DNA of 64,000 nucleotides from Planctomycetaceae bacterium (GTDB taxonomy: Bacteria > Planctomycetota > Planctomycetia > Pirellulales > UBA7805), in contig CACOUL010000002.1 in NCBI GenBank assembly GCA_902630355.1, positions 59,605 to 123,604 on the forward strand, written 5' to 3'. Under the pieces are notes generated by a model. The model ran no database searches. It saw only the letters and a program-made list of their open reading frames with translations, and was not told where the DNA came from. Both the position numbers and the translations under genes were made by a program. Position 1 is the first letter of the stretch. The number at the start of each line of letters is the position of its first letter. Shown in pieces: positions 27,878 through 41,360 of this stretch.

Positions 27878-28678
27878 TTAATCTGTCGCCGCAGGCTCGG
27901 CGGTGATTTTTTCAATTTGCGCCGGCACGCGCTGCTTCCAATACTCGTAAAGCCGCGTATCGTACCGGTTGTCTGCCGCGAGACGCGATTCAAGTTCGGG
28001 AGTCAAATCCAACCTTCTGGAAAAATTGCGGCCCGTCGCATTGCGCTTCTCGACCTCGCCTTCGATCCCGATCCGCCGGGCAATAATTGGCATATCTGCA
28101 CTCAGTGATTCGGTGCAGCCGACAAACCAGAAATCTTTGAGCGCTTTTTGAACCTGACTGAAAACCCATCCCCCAGATCCAAGGTGGAGCGGGTAGCGTG
28201 CAAATCGTTGTCCTTGCGCTAAGGCAATACCGAGGCGATGGCTGATGACCCGCTTGGCAAGAAACTTGGTCATCACGTCCCGCTCCTGATATCGGTACCA
28301 CGTCTCAAAAGGCGTTTGCTCATCCCACCGCGTAAAGGGCGCCGCATCGGACGTTTCATAATTAAATGCCGAGACGATCCGACTCGCCGGACTGCGAAGA
28401 AATGTGATCCGGCGGGCGATGCGATCCGGAAACAATCGCTCGGTCCGCATGAACACATCGTGACCGGTGATCACCCGGACTTTTGCCCGTTCCTCGCGCG
28501 ATCGTTTTTCAATCGACAAGCGGCCATGCTCCGCGTCGTCTTCCTGACCCGCGAGGCCCAGATCAATAAAATCGATCCCTCGCGAGAGCTTTTCATTCAA
28601 TAAATGGTTGATGCTGATGCCACCAGTCTTGGGCACGTGAAAAAAAATAAAGACTTCGCGCGAAGGAGACTCGACCAT
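27878..28678 (-). CDS. PAPS-dependent sulfotransferase (Sulfotransfer_2-like family)
   Basis: Shows the 5-prime-PSB motif FFHVPKTGGISI, the 3-prime-PB motif FLRSPASRIVSAFNY and the terminal DTRLYEYW. It is the last gene of the long minus-strand operon. Confidence 0.8.
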   Translation of the reverse strand: MVESPSREVFIFFHVPKTGGISINHLLNEKLSRGIDFIDLGLAGQEDDAEHGRLSIEKRSREERAKVRVITGHDVFMRTERLFPDRIARRITFLRSPASRIVSAFNYETSDAAPFTRWDEQTPFETWYRYQERDVMTKFLAKRVISHRLGIALAQGQRFARYPLHLGSGGWVFSQVQKALKDFWFVGCTESLSADMPIIARRIGIEGEVEKRNATGRNFSRRLDLTPELESRLAADNRYDTRLYEYWKQRVPAQIEKITAEPAATD

Positions 28679-28714
28679 GTGTTTCGACCTAGCAGTAAAT
28701 CTGTTCTCTCGTGC

Positions 28715-29881
28715 TTATTCGACCTTCCGCCATGCTGCGGACTGGGCTCCGGCGAGAAAGGCAAAAAACCCGAAAATCGAACCCAGGTTGGCAGTGACAA
28801 AATAAAAGGGAATGGCCGTGAGCGGTAGGTACCAGTGCATGCGATCGGCCAAAAGCCCGAGGAGCGCCGTAAAATAGAATGCGATTTGTATCCAAAGTGT
28901 CCAAAAATAGAACGGGGCATCGCCCCCCAGACTCACGAGCAGGATATTCGCTGCCAGGGCCAACAAAAGAAACCAGGGTACGAGTACTGGCATCACCGAG
29001 TGAGAAAAATAGATCCAAAATCGTGCGATCGGCCAAGGAAAAAGCATCCGTGGAAAACGGAAAAAGTTCTGATACTTTCCCGATTGACTGCGAACCTTCT
29101 GCCTGAAAAAACGTCGCGTTTGCTGCAGCACATCACCACGGGCTACCGCTTCAGGTTCAAAGATCACGCGCTTGCCCTGCTGAATAATGCCCAGCGGTAC
29201 CGCCACATCGTCGTTGATCGTATTGTTCACCGGCGGCACAAACCACTCTCGCCTCGCTGCGTAAATCGTACCGTCGCACATGCAAATGGTAGAAAGACGA
29301 CTTTCAATCGACTGCAGCAAGCGTTGAAAGCGCCAGTAAAAGCGTGTCCCGACACCCATGCCCGACTTTTCTTCATTGTAAATGTGATTCCCGGTGACCG
29401 CCCCAATCTGTGGATCGGCAAAGTGGCGGGTAAGTTTAAGGATCACATCGCGGTCAAAAAGTTCGGAGATGTCAGAAAAAACACACACTTCGCCGGTCGC
29501 TTCTGCCACTAACCGATTTACCACCGACATTTTGCCTCCCCGCTCGGTGTAGGGAAACAAGCGTACTCCCTGTGATACGAAGGTCTCTGCAATTTCGTTG
29601 GTGCGATCCTCCGAAGCATCTGAGCCGACGAGTATTTCTACCTTTTCCGATGGATAGTCGAGGGCGAGACAGTTTTCGAGTTTTTCGCGAATACAATCTT
29701 CTTCATTGTACGCCGCCAGAATGATGGAAACCGTTGGCTGAAAGCTGTCGACGGATTGACTTGCCGGTCGCAAAAGCAACGGCCGAATCAGCAGCAGTAG
29801 TATGGGGTAGATAATGTAGGGATAAATAATTGCTACTGCGGCAACCCAGAAACTCCAAAACCAGAAATCAGTCACGCCCAT
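28715..29881 (-). CDS. Membrane-integrated family-2 glycosyltransferase (synthase-like topology)
   Basis: An N-terminal TM segment is followed by the GT2 core VSIILAAYNEE...VGSDASEDRT...NDDVAV. A degenerate Q/RxxRW-region (RQKVRSQSG) precedes about four C-terminal TM helices. Confidence 0.85.
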   Translation of the reverse strand: MGVTDFWFWSFWVAAVAIIYPYIIYPILLLLIRPLLLRPASQSVDSFQPTVSIILAAYNEEDCIREKLENCLALDYPSEKVEILVGSDASEDRTNEIAETFVSQGVRLFPYTERGGKMSVVNRLVAEATGEVCVFSDISELFDRDVILKLTRHFADPQIGAVTGNHIYNEEKSGMGVGTRFYWRFQRLLQSIESRLSTICMCDGTIYAARREWFVPPVNNTINDDVAVPLGIIQQGKRVIFEPEAVARGDVLQQTRRFFRQKVRSQSGKYQNFFRFPRMLFPWPIARFWIYFSHSVMPVLVPWFLLLALAANILLVSLGGDAPFYFWTLWIQIAFYFTALLGLLADRMHWYLPLTAIPFYFVTANLGSIFGFFAFLAGAQSAAWRKVE

Positions 29882-29904
29882 CCCCTTACGTCTCGTAATA
29901 AATT

Positions 29905-31569
29905 TTATTCAATTTTTTTCGGTGGCACGCCTTGCTCTACGCCATCGGTCCATGACCGCAAAAGTTCGAGATCAATCCCTGGAGGCGTGCCGTCGGAGCC
30001 CAGTAATTTTTGTCCTGGCGATGTACTCATCAGGCGAAAATCTCCAACGGAAGGATCGACAAAACCGACGTCAGTCGCACGGGGAACAACAATATTTTCA
30101 GGTGGGTAGCTTTGTCCATGCACATCACCCACCAAAATATTATCTCGAAATGTCCACTGTTGCAGATATTTTTCAATGCTTGTTATGCCTGGTGTACTAT
30201 CTCTGCCATGAAATCCCACCTTACCGAGGGAAAAAATATTTTTTTCAAAAACAAATCCTTTAATAACCTTTCCAGACGACCCAATCAGCGTCAGTGCTTT
30301 ACCATGCCCCGGCACAAACAAGCCTACATTGTGAATGATTTTTACGTTCTGAGCCGGCTTCCGATCAGCACTTCCATCCAATTCAAAAAACGCTCGCAAT
30401 CCTCTGGAATTATTTTCCGCCACCTGAAGGATCAAATTATTGCGGATAAGAATATTTTTGACACTTTTACTCGGTTTATCTTGTTCGCCATCCGAGGAAA
30501 TGATTTGCAAAAAACCATTGATGTTCCGCAAAACATTATTCTCAAACACAATATCTTCCACCGTGACCCAGGGAGCCTTGCCATTCTGGTTACGCGGCGT
30601 GAAAAGGATTGCTTTGCCGGTTTGACCTGCCGGCCAACAATTTTCAAAAACGTTTCCGCGGACGATCGCCCTTTTTGCACATTTAAATTCGAGAAGATTT
30701 TTTATAATCCATCGCTTTGTGTAGTCCGGATGCCCTTTTTGCCAGCGGAGAGGTTTAAAAATATGATTCCGTTCGATCAGAATGTCGGCAGGAACCATTT
30801 GGTCGATTTTGGGATCGGCGCCACCAAAAGCGATATTTTCTCCCGCGCCTTCGAGAAAATTATTCACTATTTTGAAGGGCCCGGGCCCGTTGATGCCAAG
30901 GAGTGCCTGGGCCTCTGAACCCTTGTCGTGGAATTCGGAAAAATAGCTGTCAAATACCGCAATCTCCCGCGTATTCATTGTGATACCGGTGCGGACGGAC
31001 CCCGTCGGATTGCCGTGGATGTAGCATCGCTCGAAAACGAGCTTAAATGGTAATTCATCCACCGCCATTGCATGTGCTCTGCCCTTTAATTTGTCGAATC
31101 CCAACCTCACAAGATCGTAACACATATCCGTCTTGGTCGTAATTTCAATGCCGACAAAGTGGTAATGGTGCGCACCAAGTTCGGCTGTCACTGCCGGGTT
31201 GGTATTTTCTGTGTAAACTTTCGGCATGTGGACTGCGTCTTCAGGTCGCACTCGGTATCCTACGGGTGGCAAATCCTTGAGATCGGAAGACCTAATCGTG
31301 ATCCACGGACTTTGCCCCTCGGCCAATTGCCCTGTTTTGTTCGGCAAGATCACAGGCCCTCTAAACTCGGCGCCCGCCTGGAGCACCAGATGGTCACCCG
31401 GTTGGGCATCACGCAGTGCCGCATTGAGGTCATCATCTCCCGTGAGATTGATTACCCTACTCGGTGGCGGCGCTGCGACGGATTCGCACCGTGACTGAAG
31501 CGCGAAACAGAGAGCACTCCAGAATAGAATCCGCATCGCAATCATCGGAAACAGAAATTGGTAGTTCAT
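29905..31569 (-). CDS. Secreted right-handed parallel beta-helix repeat protein (candidate polysaccharide lyase/epimerase/hydrolase)
   Basis: Signal-like N-terminus MRILFWSALCFALQSRCESVAA. Asn-ladder rungs recur: VNNFLEGAG, IERNHIF, VRGNVFENC, FENNVLRNI, IRNNLILQV, IIHNVGLF, FEKNIFSL and FRDNILVGD. GC is markedly lower than in the neighbouring genes. Confidence 0.7.
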   Translation of the reverse strand: MNYQFLFPMIAMRILFWSALCFALQSRCESVAAPPPSRVINLTGDDDLNAALRDAQPGDHLVLQAGAEFRGPVILPNKTGQLAEGQSPWITIRSSDLKDLPPVGYRVRPEDAVHMPKVYTENTNPAVTAELGAHHYHFVGIEITTKTDMCYDLVRLGFDKLKGRAHAMAVDELPFKLVFERCYIHGNPTGSVRTGITMNTREIAVFDSYFSEFHDKGSEAQALLGINGPGPFKIVNNFLEGAGENIAFGGADPKIDQMVPADILIERNHIFKPLRWQKGHPDYTKRWIIKNLLEFKCAKRAIVRGNVFENCWPAGQTGKAILFTPRNQNGKAPWVTVEDIVFENNVLRNINGFLQIISSDGEQDKPSKSVKNILIRNNLILQVAENNSRGLRAFFELDGSADRKPAQNVKIIHNVGLFVPGHGKALTLIGSSGKVIKGFVFEKNIFSLGKVGFHGRDSTPGITSIEKYLQQWTFRDNILVGDVHGQSYPPENIVVPRATDVGFVDPSVGDFRLMSTSPGQKLLGSDGTPPGIDLELLRSWTDGVEQGVPPKKIE

Positions 31570-31593
31570 ACAGCGATGGTGTGTGTACTTGCG

Positions 31594-32700
31594 TTAAGGA
31601 ATACCGCGCACAATCGGGGGACCAATCCGGCGAGTGAGCCAAACCGGAAGTCTCTGCCACGTCTTGATCATCAGGCGATACTTTCCACTCTCGGGTCGCA
31701 TCTCCGAAATGCCACCCTTGCGATCATAATATTGCCAAACTGCTGGTTGGCTCTCGGCGCCCCATTGTTTTTTGAAGCGAAAAGTATTGCTCTGCTGGCT
31801 GCTGCGGCCAAAATCAAACGTATGCTGCCCACGTTCAATTGCCCGGCATAGCAATTGCCAATACATCAACATATTCGGATTTTGAGAGTTAAACTCTCGA
31901 AGCGCACTCGCGCTCGGTACCTGGGTCATCCCAGGGGCATGAATCAATAGCGCGCCGGCGATGGGCCTGCCCGCTGTCATCAGCGTACAAAATTCCGCTT
32001 GCTCTGGATACTCTTCAAGGATCGCCGCAAACAAATGAGGGCTGAAAACAGGCGTACCAAGATCGCGCATATTACGACTAAAAACTTGATAGAAAGTATC
32101 GAGTCGCTCTAAACCACCCCACTCGATTTCAAAGTTCTGCTTCTCACCCTTACGTACTTGATTGCGAACCTTGGGGCTCAGTCCTTTCCACAATTCTTCC
32201 GAAGAGGATGGAAGCGGGAGCCGCATGTGGACTTTATCCGTTCGCTGCTGGTTTAACTGCGGGTGCGAGACGGGCATCTCATGACGCAACTCGAGATAGC
32301 GCACATCCAACTCATCGGCCAAATCAACGGCCCTCGCGACAAGCGCCGAGGTCGCTTCGTTATCTGATGAAATGACTCCGGCCGTGTTCACATAGGGTAG
32401 CGAGACAAGAAATTTTCCAAAATAAATCGAGCGAATAAACGAAAGTGGCAAGACACCGACCCAGCGATCACCCCGCTTCGCGACGAGTCCGTAAGGCACA
32501 TGCTTCAGGCCTCGACTCGTTGCCCACAGCCATCCGAGATCACTACAAAAACCTTCAAGTTCGCCCGCGAATGCGCTCCACGATTCGGAAAATTTCTTGT
32601 CATTCAGGGCATCGCCCGAGACCAATTCGATGTGCAGCGCGTCGATTGAAGTCATAACTGCTGGCTCGGGACTGCAAGGTGGTCTCGAATCATCCCGCAC
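31594..32700 (-). CDS. FemAB-family (GNAT-fold) protein of the PEP-CTERM/exosortase-associated type
   Basis: Length is about 368 aa. The C-terminal block NPNMLMYWQLLCRAIERGQHTFDFGRSSQQSNTFRFKKQWGA is typical of the FemAB-related EPS-locus family. Confidence 0.75.
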   Translation of the reverse strand: MRDDSRPPCSPEPAVMTSIDALHIELVSGDALNDKKFSESWSAFAGELEGFCSDLGWLWATSRGLKHVPYGLVAKRGDRWVGVLPLSFIRSIYFGKFLVSLPYVNTAGVISSDNEATSALVARAVDLADELDVRYLELRHEMPVSHPQLNQQRTDKVHMRLPLPSSSEELWKGLSPKVRNQVRKGEKQNFEIEWGGLERLDTFYQVFSRNMRDLGTPVFSPHLFAAILEEYPEQAEFCTLMTAGRPIAGALLIHAPGMTQVPSASALREFNSQNPNMLMYWQLLCRAIERGQHTFDFGRSSQQSNTFRFKKQWGAESQPAVWQYYDRKGGISEMRPESGKYRLMIKTWQRLPVWLTRRIGPPIVRGIP

Positions 32701-32709
32701 ATGCTTTTG

Positions 32710-34008
32710 CTATGCGTTGACTCGCTCGTGATCGGGGGTCACCAGGCATCGCCTCAGATCGACAATCTCGTCTTCACTGCGCGCCTTGAGGTCAACGTCA
32801 TCTGCAATATCGTTACCGAGAACCAGCAATTCACCGTGCGAAAGCAATTGATCCAATTCTTCTACCAACAGAGCCGCCAGGTGGGGTAATCGCTGATCGA
32901 TATAAGCCAGATTGCGACCCTTTAGGCGACTGATTGAAATGCCGGGGTCGAAAATTTTAACGTCGTATCCACGACCGATCAACGTTTCGACCAAAGTAAC
33001 AAACGGACTTTCCCGCAGATCATCAGTGCCTGCCTTAAAGCTGAGCCCAATCAGCCCAATCTTCTTTTTACCCCGATCTTCAATTAAGCGAATTGCGCGG
33101 TCCAAGTGTTCCTGATTGGACGGTAAGATCGATCGCAATAAGCTCACTTTCATGGCGGCCTCTTCCGCATGTCGCGTCAGCGCGCGTAAATCCTTTGGCA
33201 AGCAGGATCCGCCAAAAGCAAATCCCGGTCGCAAGTAAGCTCGCGATACATTGAGCTTCGTATCGCGACAAACCAAATCCATCACCTGCTGTCCATCGGC
33301 ATCGAAAGAACGTGCGAGGGCACCAATTTCATTGGCAAAGCCGATCTTAGCGGCATGGTACGCGTTGCAAGCATACTTAAGCATCGCTGCGGTGGCAGTG
33401 TCGGTAACCACTTTCTCAGCATCAATACTACGATAGAGATTCAACACTTCTTCTCCGGCTGCCGGGTTTGAGGCTCCGGCAATCACAAACGGCGGAGCAT
33501 CGTAATCCCGAATTGCCACACTTTCACGAAGAAACTCGGGGTTGTTGCAAATCTGAATACGGTCACCCAGTACGGAGTCTGCGGACTCCGCCAAAAGTGG
33601 CGTCAAGCGATTTTCCAGGATTCCTGGCAACAACGTCGAACGAACGACGACGTTGTAGGATTGATCAGTCCCACGCAACGACTGTCCGATCGATTCAATT
33701 ACCTTTTCAACTGCTATTGTTGAAACCGCTCCCGTTCGATCGGATGGAGTTCCCACGGCAATCATCGCAATATCCGTTTCGGCAATCGCCTCACGAAAAT
33801 CCTCTGTTGCTCGCAATCTGCCCGCAGCAACTTGCTCGGCCACCAACTCGGCAAGACCCGGTTCGGCAACAGGCGAATCGCCCGCATTCAAAGCAGCGAC
33901 TTTCTCGGCGTCGATGTCGACGCCGATTGTCTGAAAGCCATCACGACTCAAACAGGCAGCCGTGACACATCCCACATAACCGGTTCCAAATACAGCAATG
34001 CGACTCAT
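32710..34008 (-). CDS. Nucleotide-sugar 6-dehydrogenase, AlgD-like (probable GDP-mannose 6-dehydrogenase)
   Basis: Contains FGTGYVGCV (NAD), NPEFLRESVAIRDYDAPP, KLNVSRAYLRPGFAFGGSCLPKDLRALT and GLIGLSFKAGTDDLRESPFVTLVETLIGRGYDVKIFD. These blocks are collinear with the AlgD blocks as I recall them: NPEFLRESTAIKDYD, GGSCLPKDVRAL and SFKAGTDDLRESP. Confidence 0.8.
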   Translation of the reverse strand: MSRIAVFGTGYVGCVTAACLSRDGFQTIGVDIDAEKVAALNAGDSPVAEPGLAELVAEQVAAGRLRATEDFREAIAETDIAMIAVGTPSDRTGAVSTIAVEKVIESIGQSLRGTDQSYNVVVRSTLLPGILENRLTPLLAESADSVLGDRIQICNNPEFLRESVAIRDYDAPPFVIAGASNPAAGEEVLNLYRSIDAEKVVTDTATAAMLKYACNAYHAAKIGFANEIGALARSFDADGQQVMDLVCRDTKLNVSRAYLRPGFAFGGSCLPKDLRALTRHAEEAAMKVSLLRSILPSNQEHLDRAIRLIEDRGKKKIGLIGLSFKAGTDDLRESPFVTLVETLIGRGYDVKIFDPGISISRLKGRNLAYIDQRLPHLAALLVEELDQLLSHGELLVLGNDIADDVDLKARSEDEIVDLRRCLVTPDHERVNA

Positions 34009-34085
34009 TTAATTTGCTTCCTCATTCCGACCCGAAGGTTCTTCAAAAATGAAAAGTAAGTATCCTCTCCATCCCACTCTCTATC

Positions 34086-35282
34086 CTATCGCACCACAGC
34101 TTCCTGACATACCGCGTCAAACTGGCGGGCGACCGGCTCTGCGGCAAATTCCCGGCAAACCAACTCCCGAGCAGTTTTCCCCATCTGTTCCCGCTCTTCC
34201 TGGTGGCTTAAAAGTCGATTGACGGCATCTGCGAAGTCCACAACCGAATCAGCTAATAGTATGTGCTTTTGGTCGTCAACTTTCAAACCTTCGGCTCCGA
34301 TCGAGGTACTCACGACAGCTTTTTCCATCGCCATCGCCTCAAAAATTTTGATGCGCGTCCCCCCACCGACCAGCAGCGGAGTCACTACCACCGCCGCTTG
34401 ATCCAAATAGGGCCTCACATCGGGGACCGTCCCCAGCACCTCGACCCCCGCTTCATTAGTGAGTGTTTCCACCTGACGCGATGGATTTCGGCCCACAATC
34501 TTAAATTGGGCATCGGGATGCGCCTGCCTTACTCTCGGCCAAACCTGTTTTACAAACCATTCAACACCTTCTTGATTCGGCAACCAATCCATCGAGCCTA
34601 CGAACGTAACTTGGTTTGGTAATGCCTCCGCGCGAGGCTGAAAAAATTCGGTGTCCACCGCCGTATCGATCACGTGGACGTGTTTCCAACCGTAGTCGCG
34701 CTCAAATTGCTCACGATCCTGATCGCTAACGGCGATTACGGCATCAAAATATTGGCCCGACTCTTTTTCAAATCGCACCATTTTTTTCCATTGCAAATAC
34801 ATCACGAGGCGCCGCACCCAATGAGATGCGGTTTCGATATAACGCCTGAAAATTTGTGCCTCGACATTGTGCTGAAATAAAAGGCGGCCGCGACAAGGCA
34901 ATCCTCGGGCGATCGGCACCATCTGACAAAAATCGCAGACAATCAAGTCGTAATGCTCTTGAGATGCAAGTTGCTCAGCTCTGGCGCGCAATGCAGGATT
35001 ATTATCCTTCGCTACACTGAACGGTAGCTTCGAAAACATATTTAAAGCCAGGCCAAAATAAAACTTCCATTCACCCAGCGCGGGGCTTCGCCAGGGGATC
35101 GTTTCTAGCTGCACACCGATCTCCCGCATCGCATCACAATGCGACTCTTCGCCCGCCTCGAGATTACACAGGTACGTCACATCGTGCCACTTTGCCAAAT
35201 ATCGCAACACATTAAGCGTACGGATTCTTCCTCCGGTATTGGTGGGGAAAAGAATTCGGTTCTGGATAAATAGGATTTTCAT
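34086..35282 (-). CDS. GT4-family glycosyltransferase of the PEP-CTERM/EpsH1-associated sugar transferase type
   Basis: The N-terminus MKILFIQNRILFPTNTGGRIRTLNVLRYLAKWHDVTYL is typical of that subfamily. The E-x7-E region reads FEAMAMEKAVVSTSIGAEG. Confidence 0.85.
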   Translation of the reverse strand: MKILFIQNRILFPTNTGGRIRTLNVLRYLAKWHDVTYLCNLEAGEESHCDAMREIGVQLETIPWRSPALGEWKFYFGLALNMFSKLPFSVAKDNNPALRARAEQLASQEHYDLIVCDFCQMVPIARGLPCRGRLLFQHNVEAQIFRRYIETASHWVRRLVMYLQWKKMVRFEKESGQYFDAVIAVSDQDREQFERDYGWKHVHVIDTAVDTEFFQPRAEALPNQVTFVGSMDWLPNQEGVEWFVKQVWPRVRQAHPDAQFKIVGRNPSRQVETLTNEAGVEVLGTVPDVRPYLDQAAVVVTPLLVGGGTRIKIFEAMAMEKAVVSTSIGAEGLKVDDQKHILLADSVVDFADAVNRLLSHQEEREQMGKTARELVCREFAAEPVARQFDAVCQEAVVR

Positions 35283-35304
35283 TTGACGACTGGTTGGCCC
35301 ACTT

Positions 35305-37395
35305 TCATTTTAAATCTCGAAATACAAACCCAAAACCGCGCGGCAGCACCATTTCGCCCCAAATGCGGATCACCGGGGCCCGTTGCCGAAAGCCGTACCC
35401 GGTACCGATCCAACCACGATCAGGACCTTCTCCACCCTCGATCACCTCAATCTGGGAATCGGGCCAATCCAAGATCTCAAACTCGACTTGGAGCCCATCC
35501 TCGGTTCGAATCAAAAGCCCTGATTCACCGGTGCCACGACTTACGGACGATGGTGCCAGATGGAAAAAGACTTCGATCTGTCGCGTACCGCTTCCCTCCA
35601 AGTGATCCAGAATCAACCAAGTCCCCTGGCGATCGTAATAAATTCCACGGCGGTGCGTTACCGGGGGCGACACACCAAAAAATCCCGCGTGCGAAGACTC
35701 GCAGTAATCAAACAGAGTGCCGGAATGCGAACGCAATGGTCCGGGAACAGCCACTGAGGACCATGCGTTGGATCGATGATAGTTGGCATGCGATGCCCCA
35801 TCGACCAACACCGTGTTGTGGGCAGACGCTTCCCGAAAGTAACGATGCCATGCTGGATCTTCATCGTACGTGTAAAAACCACCGTCCACGAGAAGTGGCT
35901 TTCCGCCGATTGTGAGCGTTAAGGATAAAAGATCGCTATGCCCGTGGGCAGAAGAAGGAATGGCCGAGGTATGCAGGCCAGCAGCCAACGGACCACAATC
36001 GAATGCCAGATGGCTATCGTTTTCGTTCCAACCGCTACGCATCACGTAATAACCACTTGCCGGGAACACCGCTGTTTTCTCCTGCGGTGTACGGGACGCA
36101 AGATTTTTGAACTTGGCATAACCCTCGGCCCCGAGTAACCACAGTGCGTCCTCGTAAAACTCTCCGGCCACAAATTTCATGTCTGGCCGTTCGAAAAGCA
36201 CACTTCCAATCGCGAGTAGATTTCTGAAATCCCACAAAGGCAGTTCGCCAAAACAAAACGCACGGGCATTGTCCGCGTCGCCGATCCTTGGAACCGTACC
36301 ATCACCCCTGGTCATCCAAAGGGTAAAGTCGAGCCCTCGCTCGATGGCTTGCTTCAATCCTTCCGGAACTTGCTCGCCCCGCGCCTGCCGTACGAGTAGT
36401 GCCAAAATCAAAAACCCGAGACAGTAATTGTGGTAGAACGTGGCCTGCTCGGTGCTCCCGCCATCCTCGTAGTACTGCTGCCCATAGAAATCTTCAATCA
36501 CTTTCCATCCATGGAGTCGCCACGCTTCCGATTCGTCAAATTCGGGAAAAAAGCAACCTAGGATAAAGAGCCCTGTTGCTTCGGCAATGATATGGTTGTT
36601 GGGACTGTAGTAATACGAGATGTGCCGATGCAGGTAGGCGCCATGGTGATAGAACGCTTTGATCCAATCTAAATGGTCGTCTGGCGAAAGGCACTCTTGA
36701 TCGCGGCATAACTGGTACACCCAAATCCAATTCAGGGCCCGCACAGCCACCTCAATGGCACTGCTCCAGTGAATGCCCTCCAAATAAGGATTGCCGGCAA
36801 TCCAACTCTGGACGAGTTGATTCACTCTGATCGGGTAGCGTTGATCGCTTGTGAGTCGGTATGCAATGGCACACTCGATCAAAAAATCATGCCGCGAGAG
36901 CTCCCAAACATATTTGACATCGCCCCCTCCTTCTCGACAAAAAGAAAAATCGAGATCGCCGTGGAATTGCGGTTCCCAGCGATAGCCCATTTTAGGGTCC
37001 GTATGCCAATCAATCGGATCCTCCAGCGCCACATCGAGCCCGAGAAAAGAAAATTTGCCGTCGCAGACTTTATCCGCGTTTTCCGTAACTTCTTGCACTT
37101 TGTCGGGAAAGATCTCGTGATACAGCACACTTGCGCTCGCGACTGTGCCGCTTGCCAGAAGCATGGGTGGCTCGTCGCGGGTTTGCATGTGACGCTCCCA
37201 CCACGCAGCCAACGTGTGGGAGTCGGGCACCACCGGACTGGCACCACAGAGTTTCTTCGCCCACTCCGCATGAGACCAGCCGAACGCACCCATACGAAAT
37301 TTCCTGCGCTCCGCGACAGTCGCAGCTCGGTGCTTGAGACGAAAAAGAATTTCCCCTCCCGACATGCCCATCAATTTGCGAAGACGGAGGTTCAT
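35305..37395 (-). CDS. Heparinase II/III-like protein (alpha/alpha toroid plus beta-sandwich); no signal peptide
   Basis: Shows the toroid-domain block NNHIIAEATGLFILGCFFPEF and the Hepar_II_III block HGHSDLLSLTLTIGGKPLLVDGG. The N-terminus MNLRLRKLMGMSGGEILFRLKHRA is not signal-like. Its start overlaps the upstream stop as ATGA (37392..37395). Confidence 0.8.
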   Translation of the reverse strand: MNLRLRKLMGMSGGEILFRLKHRAATVAERRKFRMGAFGWSHAEWAKKLCGASPVVPDSHTLAAWWERHMQTRDEPPMLLASGTVASASVLYHEIFPDKVQEVTENADKVCDGKFSFLGLDVALEDPIDWHTDPKMGYRWEPQFHGDLDFSFCREGGGDVKYVWELSRHDFLIECAIAYRLTSDQRYPIRVNQLVQSWIAGNPYLEGIHWSSAIEVAVRALNWIWVYQLCRDQECLSPDDHLDWIKAFYHHGAYLHRHISYYYSPNNHIIAEATGLFILGCFFPEFDESEAWRLHGWKVIEDFYGQQYYEDGGSTEQATFYHNYCLGFLILALLVRQARGEQVPEGLKQAIERGLDFTLWMTRGDGTVPRIGDADNARAFCFGELPLWDFRNLLAIGSVLFERPDMKFVAGEFYEDALWLLGAEGYAKFKNLASRTPQEKTAVFPASGYYVMRSGWNENDSHLAFDCGPLAAGLHTSAIPSSAHGHSDLLSLTLTIGGKPLLVDGGFYTYDEDPAWHRYFREASAHNTVLVDGASHANYHRSNAWSSVAVPGPLRSHSGTLFDYCESSHAGFFGVSPPVTHRRGIYYDRQGTWLILDHLEGSGTRQIEVFFHLAPSSVSRGTGESGLLIRTEDGLQVEFEILDWPDSQIEVIEGGEGPDRGWIGTGYGFRQRAPVIRIWGEMVLPRGFGFVFRDLK

Positions 37396-39395
37396 TTCGT
37401 TGAACCCACTCCTCCCGCTTCAACTGCCGCACCGCTTTGTTCGCAGCCCGCCATGATCTCCGCAGAGACATCGTCGTAACTCCCACTGTCCAGAAACACA
37501 CGTGCCCAAATCTCAAAATTCATCAACGTCCAAAGGGCATCTGTATGGTCTCTCCGGCCCCGTTGGTTTTCACTCAGAAGACGATTGAGAAAATCCACAT
37601 TAAAAATGTTACGCTGTCGAGTTTTCTCGCTTGCCAGTACGCTCGCAAACAACCCCCCGTAACTTTCATGCAGCCACTGCCTGAGCGGAACGGGAAATCC
37701 CATTTTCTCCCGCGTCAAAATAGACTCGGGCACGATCTTCGATACCGCTTTTTTGACCAGATACTTTTCGCATTTTCCATTGAGTTTCAATCGATTCGGC
37801 ACTCGCGCGGCAAACTCGACCATTTCGTGGTCGAGGAATGGCACGCGACTTTCGATCGATGCTGCCATACTCATGCGATCTTGCTTCATCAAAAGTTCGA
37901 CGAGATACGTTTTCTGGTCGACGTATAACAGTCGATCTAAATCATTTTTGCCACCACGACCCTCATAAAGATTCATCACGTCACGATACGGATTCTCATC
38001 CTTTACCTCCGCATAAAAATCGGCGCTGAAGAGCGATTCGTGTATCCGCTGGGGGAAGATCGCATGAAAATTATCAAACACTAATTCCTCGGGCCGCATC
38101 GCGTGATTCAAAAATGTATGTGAAATCTTCTTTTTCACGTTCAGCGGTAGAGGCCACTTCCAGAGCAACGGTCGCAGACACTTCTCGCGCAACCAGTGTG
38201 GAACCAGCTTCTCGTAGAGCGATCCCCATTTTAAATTAAAAAGCGTTGCCCAATAGCGAGAATACCCCGCATAAAGCTCATCGCTTCCTTCCCCCGTCAG
38301 CACCACCTTGACCCGCTCACGCGCCAATTCCGCCACATGATAGAGTGCTACGCTGGAGGGATTTCGAATCGGTTTATCTTCGTGCCAGACCAATTTTGGT
38401 ATCGATGCGATCAGATTCTCTGCGCTCAGTACAACCTCGTGATGTTCTGCGCCGATCGATTTGGCGACCTCACGCGCGAACGAAAACTCACTATAGTATT
38501 GTGAATCGAAGCCTACCGAAAACGTCATCAACGGATCGGCCATCTGTTTGGCCATCGTCGCTGCAATCGCACTTGAATCGAGACCGCCACTTAAAAATAC
38601 TCCTAGCGGTACATCGCTCATCAGCCGCAAGCGAACCGTCTCCTCAAACAAAGCGGTAAACTCGTCGACCCACTCTGATTCTTGCTGTTCGGTCACCTTG
38701 TCTTCCGGTGGCGGAACATCCCAATATTGTTCGATTTCCAACGTTCCGGATCGCCACAGCATGCGGTGACCGGGCGGGAGCACATCAATGCCTCGAAATA
38801 GCGTTTCTTGACCCGAAATGTACCCAAACGTGAGCAACTCTGGCAGACGCTGTTCATTGAGTTCGGCCGGGCAGAGTCCGGAAGCGACGATTGACTTCAT
38901 CTCCGAGGCACAAAGCAGACGATCTTTTGCAACGGCGTAGTACAACGGCTTGATGCCCAGCTTATCCCGCGCAGCAAACAGCGTCTGCCTCTTTTCATCC
39001 CAGATAACAAAGGCAAACATGCCTCGAAAACGGTGAACGCAATCGGGTCCCCATTCTTCGTACGCGTGAACGATCGTTTCTGTATCGCTCTGCGTCTGAT
39101 AGCGATGTCCCCGCTGGATCAATTCGTTCCGCAATTCGAGATGATTATAAATCTCCCCATTGTAAGTGACCCAAACAGTTTGATCCTCGTTCGACATCGG
39201 CTGGATGCCGCCTGCCAGGTCGATGATGCTCAGTCGTCGATGACCGAGCCCAACGTGCAAATCACCGCGGGAGAAAACTTGTTGCCCCTCAGCATCTGGG
39301 CCACGGTGTGTTTGGATATCGGTCATCGCGCGCAGCTTCGATTGAAGCTGCGGTGGCGTCGATGAGCTCAATAAAATAGAGGCAATTCCACACAT
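37392..39395 (-). CDS. Asparagine synthase-family glutamine amidotransferase (AsnB-like), paralog 1
   Basis: N-terminal nucleophile MCGIASIL, PP-loop FLSGGLDSS, 667 aa. Confidence 0.9.
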   Translation of the reverse strand: MCGIASILLSSSTPPQLQSKLRAMTDIQTHRGPDAEGQQVFSRGDLHVGLGHRRLSIIDLAGGIQPMSNEDQTVWVTYNGEIYNHLELRNELIQRGHRYQTQSDTETIVHAYEEWGPDCVHRFRGMFAFVIWDEKRQTLFAARDKLGIKPLYYAVAKDRLLCASEMKSIVASGLCPAELNEQRLPELLTFGYISGQETLFRGIDVLPPGHRMLWRSGTLEIEQYWDVPPPEDKVTEQQESEWVDEFTALFEETVRLRLMSDVPLGVFLSGGLDSSAIAATMAKQMADPLMTFSVGFDSQYYSEFSFAREVAKSIGAEHHEVVLSAENLIASIPKLVWHEDKPIRNPSSVALYHVAELARERVKVVLTGEGSDELYAGYSRYWATLFNLKWGSLYEKLVPHWLREKCLRPLLWKWPLPLNVKKKISHTFLNHAMRPEELVFDNFHAIFPQRIHESLFSADFYAEVKDENPYRDVMNLYEGRGGKNDLDRLLYVDQKTYLVELLMKQDRMSMAASIESRVPFLDHEMVEFAARVPNRLKLNGKCEKYLVKKAVSKIVPESILTREKMGFPVPLRQWLHESYGGLFASVLASEKTRQRNIFNVDFLNRLLSENQRGRRDHTDALWTLMNFEIWARVFLDSGSYDDVSAEIMAGCEQSGAAVEAGGVGSTK

Positions 39396-39494: not shown

Positions 39495-41360
39495 TTACTG
39501 CGAGTTGATATTTTTATGCCACCATCTTCTAAAAAAAAGATACCTCCAAAGCACCTCTGTGCGATCACGCGTACCCGCCCAATGCTCTTGGGCTAACGCC
39601 TTGAGGTCCTCGGTGGAAAAAATTCCCGCCTCTCGCATGCAAGGATCGTTTAAAGCCTCCTCCAAAGCGGGCCGAAGTTCCTTCCGCAACCAATGTTCCA
39701 TTGGCAATGCAAATCCCCACTTCCGTTGTTTCATCACTTTTGCCGGCAACTGCCGTCCAAAAAGATCCTTGAGTATTACCTTGGTCACCCGATTGTCAAT
39801 TTTCCAGCTTGCGGGCAGGCGAAAAGCAAATTCAACGATACGATAGTCCAGAAAAGGAGCCCTCAATTCGAGTGAATGTGCCATGCTCATGCGATCCACT
39901 TTGACATTGATGTCGTCCGGGAGGTAATACTCCAAATCAAAACTCGTGTACGGTCGTAGACAATCCCCATGATCGACCATTTTGAGGTCTCGACCGATTG
40001 CATCGTAGGTGGAAAATCGGTGCGTTGATTCAACGAATTCGCGGGACAAAATTTCTCGCGTCTCAAATTCATCGGTACCCACAATAAAATGCTGGTGGTG
40101 ATCGAGACCAAGGGAGCGAAAATACCGACGCCCGGGAGCGCTGCGGGGAAGGCAGTGGTGTACCGCTTTGCCAAAGCGTCCGATGATCGATCGAACCAAA
40201 CCGGGCCACGATGGCCGATTGAGAATTCGAAGGTAGCGTTCGTATCCACCAAAACTCTCATCTCCTCCGTCGCCCGCAAGGGCCACGGTAACGTGCTTTC
40301 GCGTCATCTCCGAGACGTACCAGGTGGGAACTGCCGAGGAATCCCCGAACGGTTCGTCAAAAGCATCAACCAAATCGTCGAGAACATCGACTGCCGAGGG
40401 ATTGACCACCAGTTCATGATGATCGGTTCCAAACTTTTCGGCGACCGCCCGGGCATATTGTTTTTCGCTATATTCGGACTCAGAAAAATCGATGTGAAAC
40501 GTCTTCACGGGCCCACTGCTGTGGCGGGCCATCTGAGCAACAATGATGCTCGAGTCGAGACCGCCACTTAAAAATGCCCCCAGAGGCACATCGCTGATCA
40601 TCCGCAACTTGACGGAATCCTCGATGAGCTGAAAAAGCTCTTCGCTGGCATCTTCACGCGATCGCGAAAAATCAATTTCTCCCTCCAACTGCCAATAGCG
40701 ATCAATATCTATCTTCTGTGAATTTCCATCAGCGACCAGTCGCCCAGCGGGGGGAAGTTGGCGTACGCCCTTATAAATGCTCCAAGGATGCGGGATATAA
40801 CCGAGCGTGAAGAAGTGGTGAACCGATTCCGGATCCATTTCGCGAGGAACGGCATCACAAACCATCAGACACTTTAATTCAGACCCGAAATAAAGACCAT
40901 CTTTCGTTGAAGCGTAGTAAAGCGGCTTTTGGCCGAGCCGGTCGCGAACGATGGTAAGCTTCTTTTTTGGTGCATCCCAGACCGCAATGGCAAACATGCC
41001 ATTGAGTTTTTTGGCAAAGTCGACTCCATACTCTTCGTAAAGATGCACGATGACTTCCGTGTCTCCCTGAGTGGAAAACTTATGCCCGCGCTTGATTAAA
41101 TCGCTCCGCAGGCTTTGGAAGTTATAGATCTCACCGTTAAATACGGTGCAAATTGTCCGATCTTCATTGAATATCGGCTGCGATCCAGTGACCAGATCAA
41201 TAATACTTAGTCGCCGCATCCCCAGACCAACAGGCCCGGAAACGAACATCCCCTGGTCATCAGGGCCGCGATGCACAATTCTCTTGCACATGGCATCGAC
41301 TAGTCCCTCAGGAACCGGGTCGGATGAAAACAGTCGGTAAGCGCCCGTAATACCACACAT
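39495..41360 (-). CDS. Asparagine synthase-family glutamine amidotransferase (AsnB-like), paralog 2
   Basis: N-terminal nucleophile MCGITGAY, PP-loop FLSGGLDSS, 621 aa. Confidence 0.9.
   Translation of the reverse strand: MCGITGAYRLFSSDPVPEGLVDAMCKRIVHRGPDDQGMFVSGPVGLGMRRLSIIDLVTGSQPIFNEDRTICTVFNGEIYNFQSLRSDLIKRGHKFSTQGDTEVIVHLYEEYGVDFAKKLNGMFAIAVWDAPKKKLTIVRDRLGQKPLYYASTKDGLYFGSELKCLMVCDAVPREMDPESVHHFFTLGYIPHPWSIYKGVRQLPPAGRLVADGNSQKIDIDRYWQLEGEIDFSRSREDASEELFQLIEDSVKLRMISDVPLGAFLSGGLDSSIIVAQMARHSSGPVKTFHIDFSESEYSEKQYARAVAEKFGTDHHELVVNPSAVDVLDDLVDAFDEPFGDSSAVPTWYVSEMTRKHVTVALAGDGGDESFGGYERYLRILNRPSWPGLVRSIIGRFGKAVHHCLPRSAPGRRYFRSLGLDHHQHFIVGTDEFETREILSREFVESTHRFSTYDAIGRDLKMVDHGDCLRPYTSFDLEYYLPDDINVKVDRMSMAHSLELRAPFLDYRIVEFAFRLPASWKIDNRVTKVILKDLFGRQLPAKVMKQRKWGFALPMEHWLRKELRPALEEALNDPCMREAGIFSTEDLKALAQEHWAGTRDRTEVLWRYLFFRRWWHKNINSQ

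Follow-up and report, generated by a model that had tools for sequence, protein, structure and literature searches.

What polymer is built by the proteins encoded at positions 27878-37395 of this DNA, and does it carry sulfate? The window, that is the whole stretch of 64,000 nt analysed, comes from an uncultured marine Pirellulales-like planctomycete, and a preliminary description had proposed for it a sulfated, mannuronate-containing polymer resembling glycosaminoglycans or alginate. All seven open reading frames of the region were recovered in place on the minus strand, and the genes and motifs named in that description are all present by ORF, motif and Pfam checks (Table 1). They make up the distal half of a tightly packed train of 15 minus-strand genes running from 48585 to 27878, which is consistent with a predicted operon because the intergenic gaps range from -7 to 121 bp; RNA runs consulted for it yielded nothing. 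As judged from gene content, this train and a divergent exosortase/EpsI/Wzc/Wza block constitute an exosortase-type (XrtA-like) extracellular polysaccharide (EPS) system, the context comprising an exosortase, EpsI, a FemAB-like protein, an XrtA-type deacetylase, Wzc/Wza and Wzm/Wzt with Wzt_C. The exosortase falls below the cut-offs of the specific models (116.8 vs 208 for XrtA, 154.9 vs 400 for XrtD), and the Wzy_C-like protein has at least 8 hydrophobic segments. The exosortase context had previously been overlooked, as had the FemAB-like and stp1-like GT4 genes.

Table 1. Predicted features of the polysaccharide locus and its surroundings, with positions in the window.
Feature	Position	Strand	Basis
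CysD (sulfate adenylyltransferase subunit 2), N-terminal 134 aa	1..402	-	NF009214 185.7 bits on fragment
Wza-like polysaccharide export protein	17530..18888	-	Poly_export 84.3 bits; TIGR03027 67.7 (below cut-off, 180)
Exosortase, not clear XrtA	19240..20286	+	PF09721 179.4 bits; TIGR02602 119.1 (cut-off 105.55)
Wzc-like chain-length determinant / tyrosine autokinase	20607..22958	+	TIGR01007 129.8 bits (cut-off 108.05)
EpsI-like exosortase-associated protein	23056..23760	+	PF11984 44.5 bits (cut-off 26.1)
Putative PAPS-dependent O-sulfotransferase (Sulfotransfer_2; HS2ST/HS6ST-like)	27878..28678	-	266 aa; final operon gene; PF03567
Membrane-anchored GT2 glycosyltransferase	28715..29881	-	388 aa; PF00535 68.4 bits
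Secreted right-handed beta-helix protein, uncharacterised family	29905..31569	-	554 aa; AlphaFold/Foldseek
FemAB-family XrtA/PEP-CTERM-system-associated protein (GNAT fold)	31594..32700	-	TIGR03019 341.3 bits (cut-off 260.35); PF13480 63 bits
AlgD-type GDP-mannose 6-dehydrogenase (predicted GDP-mannuronate supply)	32710..34008	-	432 aa; PDB 1mfz/1mv8 match, FGGSCLPK
GT4 glycosyltransferase, stp1-like	34086..35282	-	TIGR03087 251.1 bits (below cut-off, 316.65)
Cytoplasmic heparinase II/III-like (PL12-like) protein	35305..37395	-	696 aa; PF16889, PF07940
AsnB-type glutamine amidotransferase 1 (XrtA-system-amidotransferase-like)	37392..39395	-	TIGR03108 584.6 bits (below cut-off, 816.9); Asn_synthase 341.8
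AsnB-type glutamine amidotransferase 2	39495..41360	-	TIGR03108 605.6 bits (below cut-off, 816.9); Asn_synthase 333.6
Wzy_C / O-antigen-ligase-like polytopic membrane protein	41385..42776	-	PF04932 64.4 bits; TIGR03097 65.7 (below cut-off, 188.1)
GT4 glycosyltransferase "GT4b"	42791..44221	-	Pfam GT4 domains
Wzt ABC-transporter ATPase with C-terminal glycan-binding domain	44343..45626	-	ABC_tran 79.8 bits; Wzt_C PF14524 54.6 (cut-off 30.4)
Wzm ABC-2 permease	45653..46714	-	PF01061 51.3 bits; NF050109 57.7 bits
XrtA-system polysaccharide deacetylase	46708..47586	-	TIGR03006 377.2 bits (cut-off 276.2); Polysacc_deac_1 + DUF3473
Polyprenyl-phosphate glycosyl-1-phosphate transferase (initiating enzyme)	47599..48585	-	First gene of train; Bac_transf 180.9 bits; TIGR03025 227.4 and TIGR03013 191.8 bits, each below its own cut-off

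The dehydrogenase matches PDB 1mfz/1mv8 over its full length (415.7 bits, E 1.7e-123), compared with 225.6 bits for its top UDP-Glc dehydrogenase match, a score that no UDP-sugar dehydrogenase in PDB exceeds. It shares 46.2% identity over 416 positions with the GDP-mannose 6-dehydrogenase of P. aeruginosa, and the dehydrogenases across all fetched loci fall into a clean bimodal split, AlgD-type at 381-488 bits and UGDH-like at 121-214 bits. All three UDPG_MGDP_dh domains are found by Pfam, the FGGSCLPK motif supplies the catalytic Cys, and exact matches to NPEFLRESVAIRDYD, GGSCLPKDLRAL and SFKAGTDDLRESP lie at residues 156, 266 and 323, respectively. By sequence the enzyme is thus a member of the AlgD-type GDP-mannose 6-dehydrogenase family and not of the Ugd/WecC type, the distinction on which the preliminary description had staked its reading, and GDP-mannuronate supply is predicted. 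Genes for GDP-mannose supply are absent from the 64-kb window. Among distant lineages in public metagenomes, the dehydrogenase adjacent to a heparinase-like gene is AlgD-type in 11 of 12 instances; the coupling is not universal, because an AlgD-type gene is seen in only 11 of 71 distant heparinase-like loci, within the DNA available. Homologues of the stp1-like GT4 adjoin AlgD-type genes in three distant loci (L085, L148 and L156), and from this conserved adjacency it is a candidate mannuronosyltransferase.

Sulfation would depend on the last gene of the train. Its product scores 31.2 bits against Pfam PF03567 (Sulfotransfer_2; cut-off 22), and the PAPS-binding motifs reported earlier are indeed intact, with exact matches to HVPKTGG at residue 14 and LRSPASRIVS at residue 94. 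Across 16 homologues H14, P16-K17-T18-G19-G20, G72-H73, R95 and S103 are invariant, and the PAPS loops and aligned catalytic His are kept. Profile comparison with PDB retrieves HS 6-O-ST (E 6e-8) and HS 2-O-ST (E 2e-3), and the top seven Foldseek matches of the structural model (pLDDT 91) are all HS 2-O/6-O-sulfotransferases (7/7). From motifs and model, the protein is a credible PAPS-dependent carbohydrate O-sulfotransferase. The gene order Hep-GT4-AlgD-FemAB-beta-helix-GT2-sulfotransferase is kept in at least five related marine planctomycete MAG species, in which the sulfotransferase and uronate genes are stably linked. GT4b is present in related loci with the sulfotransferase, which it directly adjoins in three (L008, L091 and L092), and is missing from sister loci without it. 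In three distant heparinase-like loci a gene of a different family, Sulfotransfer_3, is found, once also with an AlgD-type gene; there the same core has recruited sulfation independently. The cysD gene previously placed at the left edge of the window is there, as a fragment at 402-1 (minus strand) that covers the N-terminal 134 aa of CysD; it belongs to general sulfate activation, outside the polysaccharide locus.

The heparinase II/III-like protein is recognised by Hepar_II_III_N (PF16889, 111.5 bits) and Hepar_II_III_C (PF07940, 125.9 bits), and matches heparinase III 5jmd with 72 bits by single sequence and 159 bits by profile. N267-H268, Y321-H322 and H484-G-H486-x-D488 are invariant in 24 homologues. 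As had been observed, it carries no signal peptide, nor any TM or other hydrophobic segment; the same holds for the sulfotransferase, and no signal peptide or TM segment was found in the dehydrogenase or AsnB proteins, which fits the cytoplasmic cofactors of these enzymes. The assertion that cytoplasmic members of this fold in bacterial biosynthetic loci had been shown to be epimerases is not supported: the sole precedent found is human DS-epimerase 1 (DS-epi1), a Golgi-luminal enzyme, and a literature search returned no published bacterial epimerase with the heparinase fold.

For the membrane GT2, the synthase-like topology ascribed to it is borne out in its layout, with TM segments at the N-terminus and clustered at the C-terminus, while the synthase reading itself is not: its top PDB match (75 bits) is 6yv7 PcManGT, a non-processive GDP-Man to Dol-PP-glycan transferase, and the QxxRW motif is absent from the protein, which has QKVRS at residue 261. 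Probably it works as a non-processive transferase, with a lipid-linked intermediate as substrate. The 554-aa secreted protein has no match in Pfam or NCBIfam; its AlphaFold model (pLDDT 86.8, pTM 0.87) is identified by Foldseek as a right-handed beta-helix, with PL6/PL31 alginate lyases, GH136, tailspikes and chondroitinase B among the matches (E about 5e-6, TM 0.3-0.5). A hydrophobic signal-like segment lies at the N-terminus, and some of the more than 1,700 homologues are fused to CBM6/CBM35. Both the fold and the lack of an AlgG DPHD motif agree with what had been described; its value as evidence for uronate chemistry was overstated, because homologues are also encoded in EPS loci that have no dehydrogenase, heparinase-like or sulfotransferase gene. 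The protein probably processes glycan in the periplasm or outside the cell. The FemAB-family protein could pass an aminoacyl or acyl group to the glycan, and the two AsnB-type genes noted upstream are present; were the uronate a substrate of both amidotransferases, uronamide would replace free carboxylate in the polymer.

Taken as a whole, the gene content inclines us, with some reserve, towards a sulfated, mannuronate-derived acidic heteropolysaccharide, distinct from alginate, as the product of this exosortase-type system. Synthesis would begin with priming of a polyprenyl-phosphate carrier by the Bac_transf enzyme, with GDP-mannose converted to GDP-mannuronate by the AlgD-type dehydrogenase. 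The stp1-like GT4, the second GT4 and the membrane GT2 would then assemble the heteropolysaccharide on the cytoplasmic face, mannuronate being at least one of its residues if the conserved adjacency is a guide. The heparinase-like enzyme may abstract the uronate C5 proton in the cytoplasm, most likely turning mannuronate into guluronate, and the HS2ST/HS6ST-like enzyme would O-sulfate the glycan there with PAPS, either on the uronate or on the residue added by the GT4 that co-occurs with the sulfotransferase. Tailoring may include de-N-acetylation by the deacetylase, acyl/aminoacyl transfer by the FemAB-like protein and possibly uronamide formation by the AsnB pair. The product would leave through Wzm/Wzt and Wzc/Wza, and could be trimmed or remodelled outside the cytoplasm by the secreted beta-helix enzyme.

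The sulfate might instead belong elsewhere. The acceptor of the sulfotransferase could be a glycolipid, a small molecule, or a protein that is secreted or exosortase-sorted, in which case the EPS would contain mannuronate but no sulfate. The modest Pfam score, the low similarity of the model to GAG sulfotransferases (TM 0.5-0.57, 13-17% identity), an acceptor-binding region that is not readable from sequence, and a gene that is terminal and accessory, missing from sister planctomycete loci that retain Hep-GT4-AlgD-FemAB-beta-helix-GT2, all leave room for this. It is nonetheless improbable, given that the gene follows GT2 after 36 bp, with both read in one direction, and keeps its position within an identical gene order in marine planctomycete MAGs whose sulfotransferases share as little as 55% identity. 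In addition, a family member is fused to a GT2, and the top structural relatives are all polysaccharide O-sulfotransferases, with the enzymes for small molecules, peptides and tyrosine ranking lower. Slightly less probable again is a sulfate cap at the non-reducing end, which would end chain growth and be read by the Wzt C-terminal domain, leaving the bulk polymer essentially unsulfated. Methyl, phosphate and Kdo caps are known from E. coli O9a and Klebsiella O12; here Wzt has the Wzt_C domain (54.6 bits), and no further enzyme stands out as a terminator. Wzt also lies within 10 kb in 9 of 80 genome loci with distant sulfotransferase relatives, Wzt_C occurs in 6 of 8 Wzt proteins tested (a raw count, uncorrected for the frequency of Wzt_C near arbitrary glycan genes), and Aeromonas salmonicida has a gene with a sulfotransferase domain next to wzt although no sulfate is seen in its published O-antigen repeat. 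Against a cap, a bin91s-type lineage (L092) keeps the sulfotransferase but lacks Wzt and retains only some 80 aa of Wzm, the fusions seen in the family are with GT2 or tandem sulfotransferase domains and not of the WbdD terminator-like type, and the literature search found no published example.

Sulfation of the heteropolysaccharide is thus retained as the preferred reading, and the uronate chemistry has its own competing accounts. The heparinase-like protein is predicted to act at uronate C5, where epimerisation is favoured and lyase activity possible. A true lyase, serving like AlgL in housekeeping or chain-length control and cleaving uronate that stays mannuronate, is a tentative alternative: all solved-structure neighbours by sequence are lyases (PL12 at 159 bits, then PL15, PL17 and PL39), DS-epimerase gives no match in the sequence comparison, and its catalytic residues, N-H and Y-H, are those of lyases. 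Lyases and hydrolases are also common within EPS operons, AlgL, which acts in the periplasm, being an example. However, a lyase in the predicted cytoplasmic location would destroy nascent lipid-linked chains, and human DS-epi1 is an epimerase with the same fold and active-site set; the authors of the DS-epi1 work reason that a lyase can become an epimerase through minor changes in its active site. Epimerisation, by which mannuronate within an oligomer or polymer becomes guluronate, is therefore mildly preferred. Very unlikely is the stronger form of the preliminary description, an alginate-like homopolyuronate made by an Alg8-like processive GT2 and an AlgG-like beta-helix epimerase. The AlgD-type dehydrogenase, the GT2 topology and the alginate lyases among the beta-helix matches agree with it; the non-processive relative of GT2, its lack of QxxRW and the DPHD-less beta-helix, whose family extends to loci without uronate genes, do not, and the Pfam/NCBIfam matches include none of the families PilZ/Alg44, AlgK, AlgE, AlgX and AlgI/J/F. 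A lipid-linked heteropolymer is implied by the phosphoglycosyl transferase, the pair of GT4s, the Wzy_C protein and Wzm/Wzt.

Of the polymer first proposed, the AlgD type of the dehydrogenase, the sulfotransferase and their linkage are supported; "alginate-like" is not, and "glycosaminoglycan-like" would apply by analogy only. Mannuronic acid and sulfate in one surface polymer are rarely documented in bacteria. Unlike the alginate system, with its Alg8/Alg44/AlgK/AlgE/AlgX features, which the locus lacks, the system encoded here is lipid-primed, multi-glycosyltransferase and exosortase-type.

The seven co-directional open reading frames (ORFs) which encode the proposed polymer-forming enzymes are the distal part of a train of 15 genes starting at 48585, with intergenic gaps of -7 to 121 bp. 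The motifs quoted for them in the preliminary description are each found at the expected position and the genes it named are all present, while a FemAB-like protein and a GT4 glycosyltransferase of the same stretch had been left unmentioned. The remaining genes of the train encode two AsnB-type amidotransferases, a Wzy_C-type membrane protein, a second GT4 (GT4b), Wzt, Wzm, a deacetylase and a Bac_transf initiator. Wzt carries a Wzt_C domain (PF14524, 54.6 bits against a cut-off of 30.4) and Wzm matches PF01061 at 51.3 bits. Upstream, largely on the opposite strand, lie an exosortase, a Wzc-like tyrosine autokinase, EpsI, a Wza-like exporter and two PrsT-like TPR proteins.

Coordinates of the operon's distal genes and of other features in the window
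Feature	Position	Strand	Remark
CysD, N-terminal 134 residues	1-402	-	runs off the left window edge
RsmG	467-1156		
ApaH-like phosphatase	2413-3126		
Two tandem TPR proteins, ~1,450 aa each	3148-7542, 7641-11981	-	best family match PrsT, ~140 bits, below 312
Wza-like export protein	17530-18888	-	Poly_export, 84 bits
Exosortase	19240-20286	+	
Two large proteins with prepilin-type N-terminal methylation signals	23840-25750, 25886-27835	+	one with a Golvesin_C domain
Sulfotransferase	27878-28678	-	distal operon ORF
GT2	28715-29881	-	distal operon ORF
Secreted 554-aa protein (beta-helix)	29905-31569	-	distal operon ORF
FemAB-like protein	31594-32700	-	distal operon ORF
Nucleotide-sugar dehydrogenase	32710-34008	-	distal operon ORF
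GT4 (stp1-like)	34086-35282	-	distal operon ORF
Heparinase II/III-like protein	35305-37395	-	distal operon ORF

By its protein families the locus is part of an exosortase-type exopolysaccharide (EPS) system, as the FemAB-like protein passes the XrtA-system equivalog TIGR03019 (341.3 bits, above 260.35), and a kinship with XrtA/PEP-CTERM loci can be recognised in its core. The polysaccharide deacetylase also exceeds its XrtA-system model (TIGR03006, 377.2 bits, above 276.2). Several components, the exosortase included, fall below the curated cut-offs of that system. The exosortase reaches 119.1 with the generic model TIGR02602 (above 105.55) and 116.8 with the XrtA model TIGR03109 (below 208), while the amidotransferases (585 and 606 against 817), the GT4 (251 against 317 for the stp1 glycosyltransferase model) and the export protein (68 against 180) have XrtA-system models as their best matches, at scores below the cut-offs. 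The best-scoring specific exosortase model is XrtD, not XrtA (155 bits, below 400), and the tandem TPR proteins are far longer than the 899-position PrsT model. A regular-expression scan of window ORFs of at least 50 aa gave no PEP-CTERM-like C-terminal sorting signal; PEP-CTERM substrates may be encoded elsewhere in the genome.

Other features of the surroundings deserve mention. The Wza-like export protein also possesses a Peptidase_S74 'chaperone of endosialidase' domain (residues 353-395, 29.4 bits against 22), an intramolecular-chaperone, self-cleaving module usually found on phage tailspikes. The two proteins with prepilin-type signals sit between EpsI and the end of the EPS operon, a position kept in related MAGs (L004, L007, L008), and look like pseudopilin-like products encoded inside an exosortase EPS locus. 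CysD, RsmG and the ApaH-like phosphatase are housekeeping proteins unconnected to the EPS locus; cysD does lie at the left edge, as had been noted, but belongs to ordinary sulfate assimilation and adds little.

The dehydrogenase is, by family, of the GDP-mannose 6-dehydrogenase (GMD, AlgD) type. Compared with all PDB sequences, it matches the Pseudomonas aeruginosa GMD (1mfz/1mv8) over its full length at 415.7 bits (E 1.7e-123), with 46.2% identity to AlgD over 416 positions, whereas the best UDP-sugar enzyme, a UDP-glucose dehydrogenase, reaches 225.6 bits, with WecC/Cap5O-type enzymes at ~110 and WecC- and TviB-type chains all at or below 225.6. Clustering with UDP-sugar enzymes, named beforehand as the outcome that would speak against a mannuronate polymer, was checked and came out negative. 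Scores of P. aeruginosa AlgD against every fetched locus fall into two separate groups, 381-488 and 121-214 bits, the window enzyme lying in the upper one. The catalytic-Cys motif is intact (FGGSCLPKD, residues 265-273), FGGSCLPK having been described for Cys268 of GMD (PMC10740432).

Two further proteins of the operon had been read in the light of alginate synthesis. The GT2 does have a synthase-like topology; its nearest solved relative is PcManGT (75 bits), a non-processive enzyme of minimal cellulose-synthase-like fold which transfers mannose from GDP-mannose to a lipid-linked glycan, and in place of QxxRW, which is absent, it has QKVRS. On this match and the missing motif, the reading as an Alg8-like processive synthase was rejected. 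The secreted 554-aa protein is a right-handed beta-helix according to its structure model and Foldseek, and contains neither DPHD, as had been observed, nor DPH. Its Foldseek matches are weak and mixed (PL6, PL31, GH136, tailspikes and GH28; TM 0.3-0.5, ~12% identity), with AlgG absent among the top 50, and membership of an AlgG-type or lyase family was rejected although the fold is right. Homologues of 43% identity occur in EPS loci with Wzz/Wzc, Bac_transf, Wzy_C, GT4, two FemAB-like GNATs and GT2, all of which lack a dehydrogenase, heparinase-like or sulfotransferase gene. Given these matches and these loci, the protein was set aside as evidence for uronate chemistry, so that the predicted fold stands while its value as a pointer to a polyuronate does not; it is best seen as a putative general EPS-processing enzyme. 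In EPS loci of unrelated metagenomic bacteria (L168, L169; 8001-16128) a trio of beta-helix protein, FemAB-like GNAT(s) and GT2 occurs in the same order as in the window, where the three are neighbours.

The sulfotransferase scores 31.2 bits with Pfam Sulfotransfer_2 (cut-off 22), and H14, P16-K17-T18-G19-G20, G72-H73, R95 and S103 do not vary across 16 homologues, the most distant of which is 28% identical. In a profile-to-PDB alignment the invariant residues match the PAPS loops (PKT, RDP...S) and the G-H of HS2ST, in which His142 serves as the catalytic base. With the family above its cut-off and the PAPS-loop residues invariant in 16 sequences, the earlier claim of a Sulfotransfer_2-type enzyme with intact PAPS-binding motifs is borne out. 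The AlphaFold model (pLDDT 91, pTM 0.88) finds heparan-sulfate 2-O- and 6-O-sulfotransferases as all of its best seven Foldseek matches (E 1.4e-6 to 2.5e-5, TM 0.51-0.57). The wider family is common, with 16,741 cluster representatives at E <=1e-3 and 178 at <=1e-30 among 1.84 billion, and the orthologous group is small (28 sequences in a word-indexed search). Genomes were scanned with a 10-sequence sulfotransferase alignment, because the 16-sequence alignment was too diverse. Some relatives carry several sulfotransferase domains in tandem on one polypeptide (P0301 of 1250 aa, P0284 and P0377); P0301 also matches Gal-3-O-sulfotransferase at 112 bits, and in P0277 the sulfotransferase is fused to a GT2 domain. 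Judged from their domain content, such tandem and GT2 fusions fit glycan acceptors and point to heavily sulfated glycans in other uncultured bacteria.

The gene order heparinase-like protein (Hep), GT4, AlgD-type dehydrogenase, FemAB-like protein, beta-helix protein, GT2 and sulfotransferase does not vary among the related loci of sufficient length, with identities as low as 55% for the sulfotransferase and 77% for the dehydrogenase. Sister planctomycete loci (L084/L087 and L095; Hep 54-58% identical) keep the genes from Hep through GT2 but lack the sulfotransferase, the second GT4 and Wzm/Wzt, so the sulfotransferase is an accessory decoration of a conserved core. It co-occurs with GT4b, and in bin91s-type loci the two are directly adjacent. 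In one such locus (L092, 2100-3170) wzm survives as a ~80-aa remnant and no wzt is present; their place is taken by a second deacetylase and a fragment of a GT, and the sulfotransferase and GT4b are kept side by side.

Both Pfam domains of Hep are above threshold (111.5 and 125.9 bits). A 24-sequence family profile matches PL12 heparinase III in the PDB at 159 bits, followed by weak matches to PL15, PL17 and PL39 alginate lyases, with no match to DS-epimerase. Residues N267-H268, Y321-H322 and H484-G-H486-x-D488 are invariant across the family alignment, the NH and YH pairs aligning with the catalytic NH and YH of heparinase III (5jmd). No signal peptide, transmembrane or hydrophobic N-terminal segment is found in Hep, whose N-terminus is conserved in the alignment; the secreted or periplasmic location typical of catabolic lyases is accordingly not predicted for it.

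A metagenome scan for Hep gave 80 further loci, 71 of which encode proteins with <54% identity to that of the window. In 12 of these 71 distant loci a dehydrogenase is visible beside Hep, AlgD-type in 11 (sharing 44-48% identity with the window enzyme and 50-56% with P. aeruginosa AlgD) and UGDH-like in one. Two neighbouring dehydrogenases were compared with the PDB and both are AlgD-type, from the distant locus L085 (524 bits) and the sister planctomycete locus L084 (412 bits). The AlgD-type neighbours in distant loci tie Hep functionally to GDP-mannuronate-derived residues. Furthermore, three distant loci (L086, L121, L136) have a Sulfotransfer_3-family gene beside Hep, L121 with an AlgD-type gene as well, from which it follows that sulfation joined the core more than once, through different sulfotransferase families. 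Several distant Hep loci (L086 at 16010-20261, L102-L105, L122, L165 and L166) also hold an adjacent pair of genes for a Pel9A-like beta-helix protein and a ~860-aa protein without a Pfam match, which may be the counterpart of the window's secreted beta-helix enzyme.

From the family assignments and linkage observed, a route can be proposed in which each catalytic step and product is a prediction. The initiating transferase, the two GT4s and the GT2 would build a lipid-primed heteropolysaccharide in the cytoplasm, the stp1-like GT4 probably using GDP-mannuronate from the adjacent AlgD-type enzyme; this GT4-AlgD adjacency recurs in L085, L148 and L156. Hep would modify the uronate at C5, the glycan would undergo PAPS-dependent O-sulfation, and the deacetylase, the FemAB-like protein and the AsnB enzymes would tailor it further, with export via Wzm/Wzt and Wzc/Wza and then trimming by the beta-helix enzyme. 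As the NAD+-, PAPS- and glutamine/ATP-dependent enzymes all lack export signals, the scheme is internally consistent.

Lyase and epimerase reactions both start with abstraction of the uronate C5 proton, and hence the conserved residues of Hep cannot tell one from the other. The preliminary description held that cytoplasmic members of this fold in biosynthetic loci had been shown to be C5-epimerases, a statement that could not be traced: full-text searches yielded no published bacterial cytoplasmic C5-epimerase of heparinase fold. The archaeal epimerase Agl32 was rejected as a precedent on account of its different fold, and the sole fitting one found is human DS-epimerase 1, which agrees with heparinase II in its fold, its catalytic residues and its metal site; its authors argue that minute active-site changes turn a lyase into an epimerase. 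Epimerisation is favoured because a lyase at work on growing lipid-linked chains in the cytoplasm would seem self-defeating. We therefore lean, with modest confidence, towards Hep as an epimerase converting mannuronate to guluronate, and consider a lyase, which the same residues would serve, somewhat unlikely.

The sulfate itself could be read differently, as a chain-terminating cap recognised by Wzt_C. That the Wzt of the window carries this domain, that some sulfotransferase/Wzt_C association exists in distant phyla and that the sulfotransferase is the only terminator candidate in the locus would agree with a cap, but in L092 the sulfotransferase persists where Wzm is reduced to a remnant and Wzt is gone, and among sulfotransferase relatives no fusion of terminator type turned up, leaving the cap a low-probability reading. 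A tblastn search with the Wzt C-domain alone gave no matches. A non-glycan acceptor for the enzyme is an alternative of low probability; Foldseek ranks small-molecule, glycopeptide and tyrosine sulfotransferases below the heparan-sulfate ones. True alginate, for which the AlgD-type dehydrogenase would supply the precursor, is an unlikely product, and the alginate-like reading offered at the outset is not supported in a locus with no Alg8/Alg44, no QxxRW and no DPHD. The product we propose, with moderate confidence, is an O-sulfated heteropolysaccharide containing C5-modified mannuronate.

The closest genomes are marine planctomycete MAGs, namely Pirellulales cluster2_bin.239 (sulfotransferase 96% identity), followed by DS_MAG18, TMED10, UBA7805 and bin91s, and near-identical DNA occurs in metagenomes of seawater, cold seep, marine sediment and sponge. 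No RNA runs with the locus were found and no contig of three cold-seep metatranscriptomes could be placed on it; promoter and terminator scans at both operon ends were uninformative.

Exosortase-type EPS loci are already well catalogued, and no paper in the collection searched connects exosortase/PEP-CTERM loci with any of the three enzyme types AlgD-type dehydrogenase, heparinase-like protein and sulfotransferase. The broader lead, more interesting than the locus itself, is the heparinase-like/AlgD-type module. The trio of Hep, AlgD-type dehydrogenase and GT4 might mark a widespread, uncharacterised, non-alginate route to mannuronate/guluronate heteropolysaccharides, used by marine, sediment and soil bacteria with EPS loci of the exosortase type. 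Hep would then be a uronyl C5-epimerase of the dermatan-sulfate-epimerase fold, the first from bacteria, and sulfotransferases would have joined independently, Sulfotransfer_2 in marine Pirellulales and Sulfotransfer_3 in a few other lineages; taken in full, this reading is tentative and rather unlikely. If true, it would give bacteria the glycosaminoglycan tailoring logic of animals, an epimerase plus an O-sulfotransferase. The AlgD-type enzymes beside a cytoplasmic heparinase-fold protein in 11 distant loci suggest that GDP-mannuronate feeds non-alginate polymers too, and Hep offers a concrete candidate with which to ask if uronyl C5-epimerases of lyase fold exist in bacteria.

Marine planctomycetes, rich in sulfatases, have chiefly been seen as degraders of sulfated glycans from algae; the locus would make them producers of a sulfated uronate polymer, which is relevant to the carbon and sulfur cycles of the sea. 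It is relevant, too, to the source of the "sulfated glycosaminoglycan-like" material that chemical work has reported from marine PVC bacteria and planctomycete-rich granules, the genes for which are unknown. In addition, chemo-enzymatic routes to sulfated glycans would profit from bacterial O-sulfotransferases that are soluble and act on polysaccharides.

Among known systems, the locus resembles the XrtA/PEP-CTERM EPS loci of floc-forming Proteobacteria such as Zoogloea, defined by Haft's TIGR03006/03019/03087/03108 gene set. Shared are the exosortase, EpsI, FemAB-family protein, XrtA-type deacetylase, AsnB amidotransferases and stp1-like GT4, together with the Bac_transf initiator, Wzc/Wza-like export and PrsT-like TPR proteins. 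It differs in that the exosortase scores below the XrtA cut-off and the amidotransferase, stp1, PrsT and export models below theirs, in that no PEP-CTERM tail was found in the window, and in the addition of Wzm/Wzt with Wzt_C, the AlgD-type dehydrogenase, Hep and the sulfotransferase. With the alginate operon of Pseudomonas and Azotobacter (algD-alg8-alg44-algK-algE-algG-algX-algL-algIJF-algA) it has in common an AlgD-type GMD predicted to supply GDP-mannuronate, a predicted C5-acting enzyme and a secreted beta-helix in the operon. The window lacks, however, the Alg8/Alg44 pair (no operon protein matches the PilZ family of Alg44), AlgK/AlgE secretion and AlgX/I/J/F acetylation, and its beta-helix lacks DPHD; its toroid-fold enzyme is PL12-like and cytoplasmic while AlgL is a periplasmic PL5 enzyme, and its assembly would be lipid-primed with several glycosyltransferases. 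Like the Wzt_C-bearing ABC-transporter glycan pathways of E. coli O9a/O8 and Klebsiella O12, the locus has a Wzm/Wzt pair whose Wzt bears a C-terminal glycan-binding domain, but no WbdD- or WbbB-type terminator is recognised in the window, Wzc/Wza and a Wzy_C protein coexist with the transporter, and the latter has decayed in one related lineage.

Cyanobacteria (synechan) already provide an example of an EPS cluster with sulfotransferase genes, and one has been proposed for Pontiella. Compared by description, the xss genes of Synechocystis and the putative sulfated-glycosaminoglycan cluster of Pontiella (Kiritimatiellae) likewise place sulfotransferases among glycosyltransferase genes. The Pontiella enzymes were found via PF13469 (Sulfotransfer_3) whereas that of the window is Sulfotransfer_2, and the legend to the Pontiella cluster lists no AlgD-type or heparinase-like partner, unlike the window. 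In the Agl N-glycan pathway of Halobacterium salinarum, the epimerase Agl32 acts before the sulfotransferases Agl30/Agl31, so that a lipid-linked uronate is epimerised at C5 in the cytoplasm and then sulfated before flipping, as proposed here. Agl32, however, has a cellobiose-2-epimerase-like fold and Hep a heparinase fold, and the archaeal pathway builds a tetrasaccharide on dolichol phosphate with GlcA as the substrate, against a polymer and ManA in the window. Animal tailoring of heparan and dermatan sulfate (DS-epimerase 1 or Glce with HS 2-O-/6-O-sulfotransferases) combines, likewise, a lyase-fold C5 enzyme with a Sulfotransfer_2-type O-sulfotransferase; the animal enzymes are Golgi-luminal and use UDP-GlcA-derived residues, while those of the window are cytoplasmic and bacterial with GDP-ManA as the predicted donor, and Hep has no sequence match to DS-epimerase. 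The likeness to animal glycosaminoglycan synthesis is one of analogy, not of homology between the pathways.
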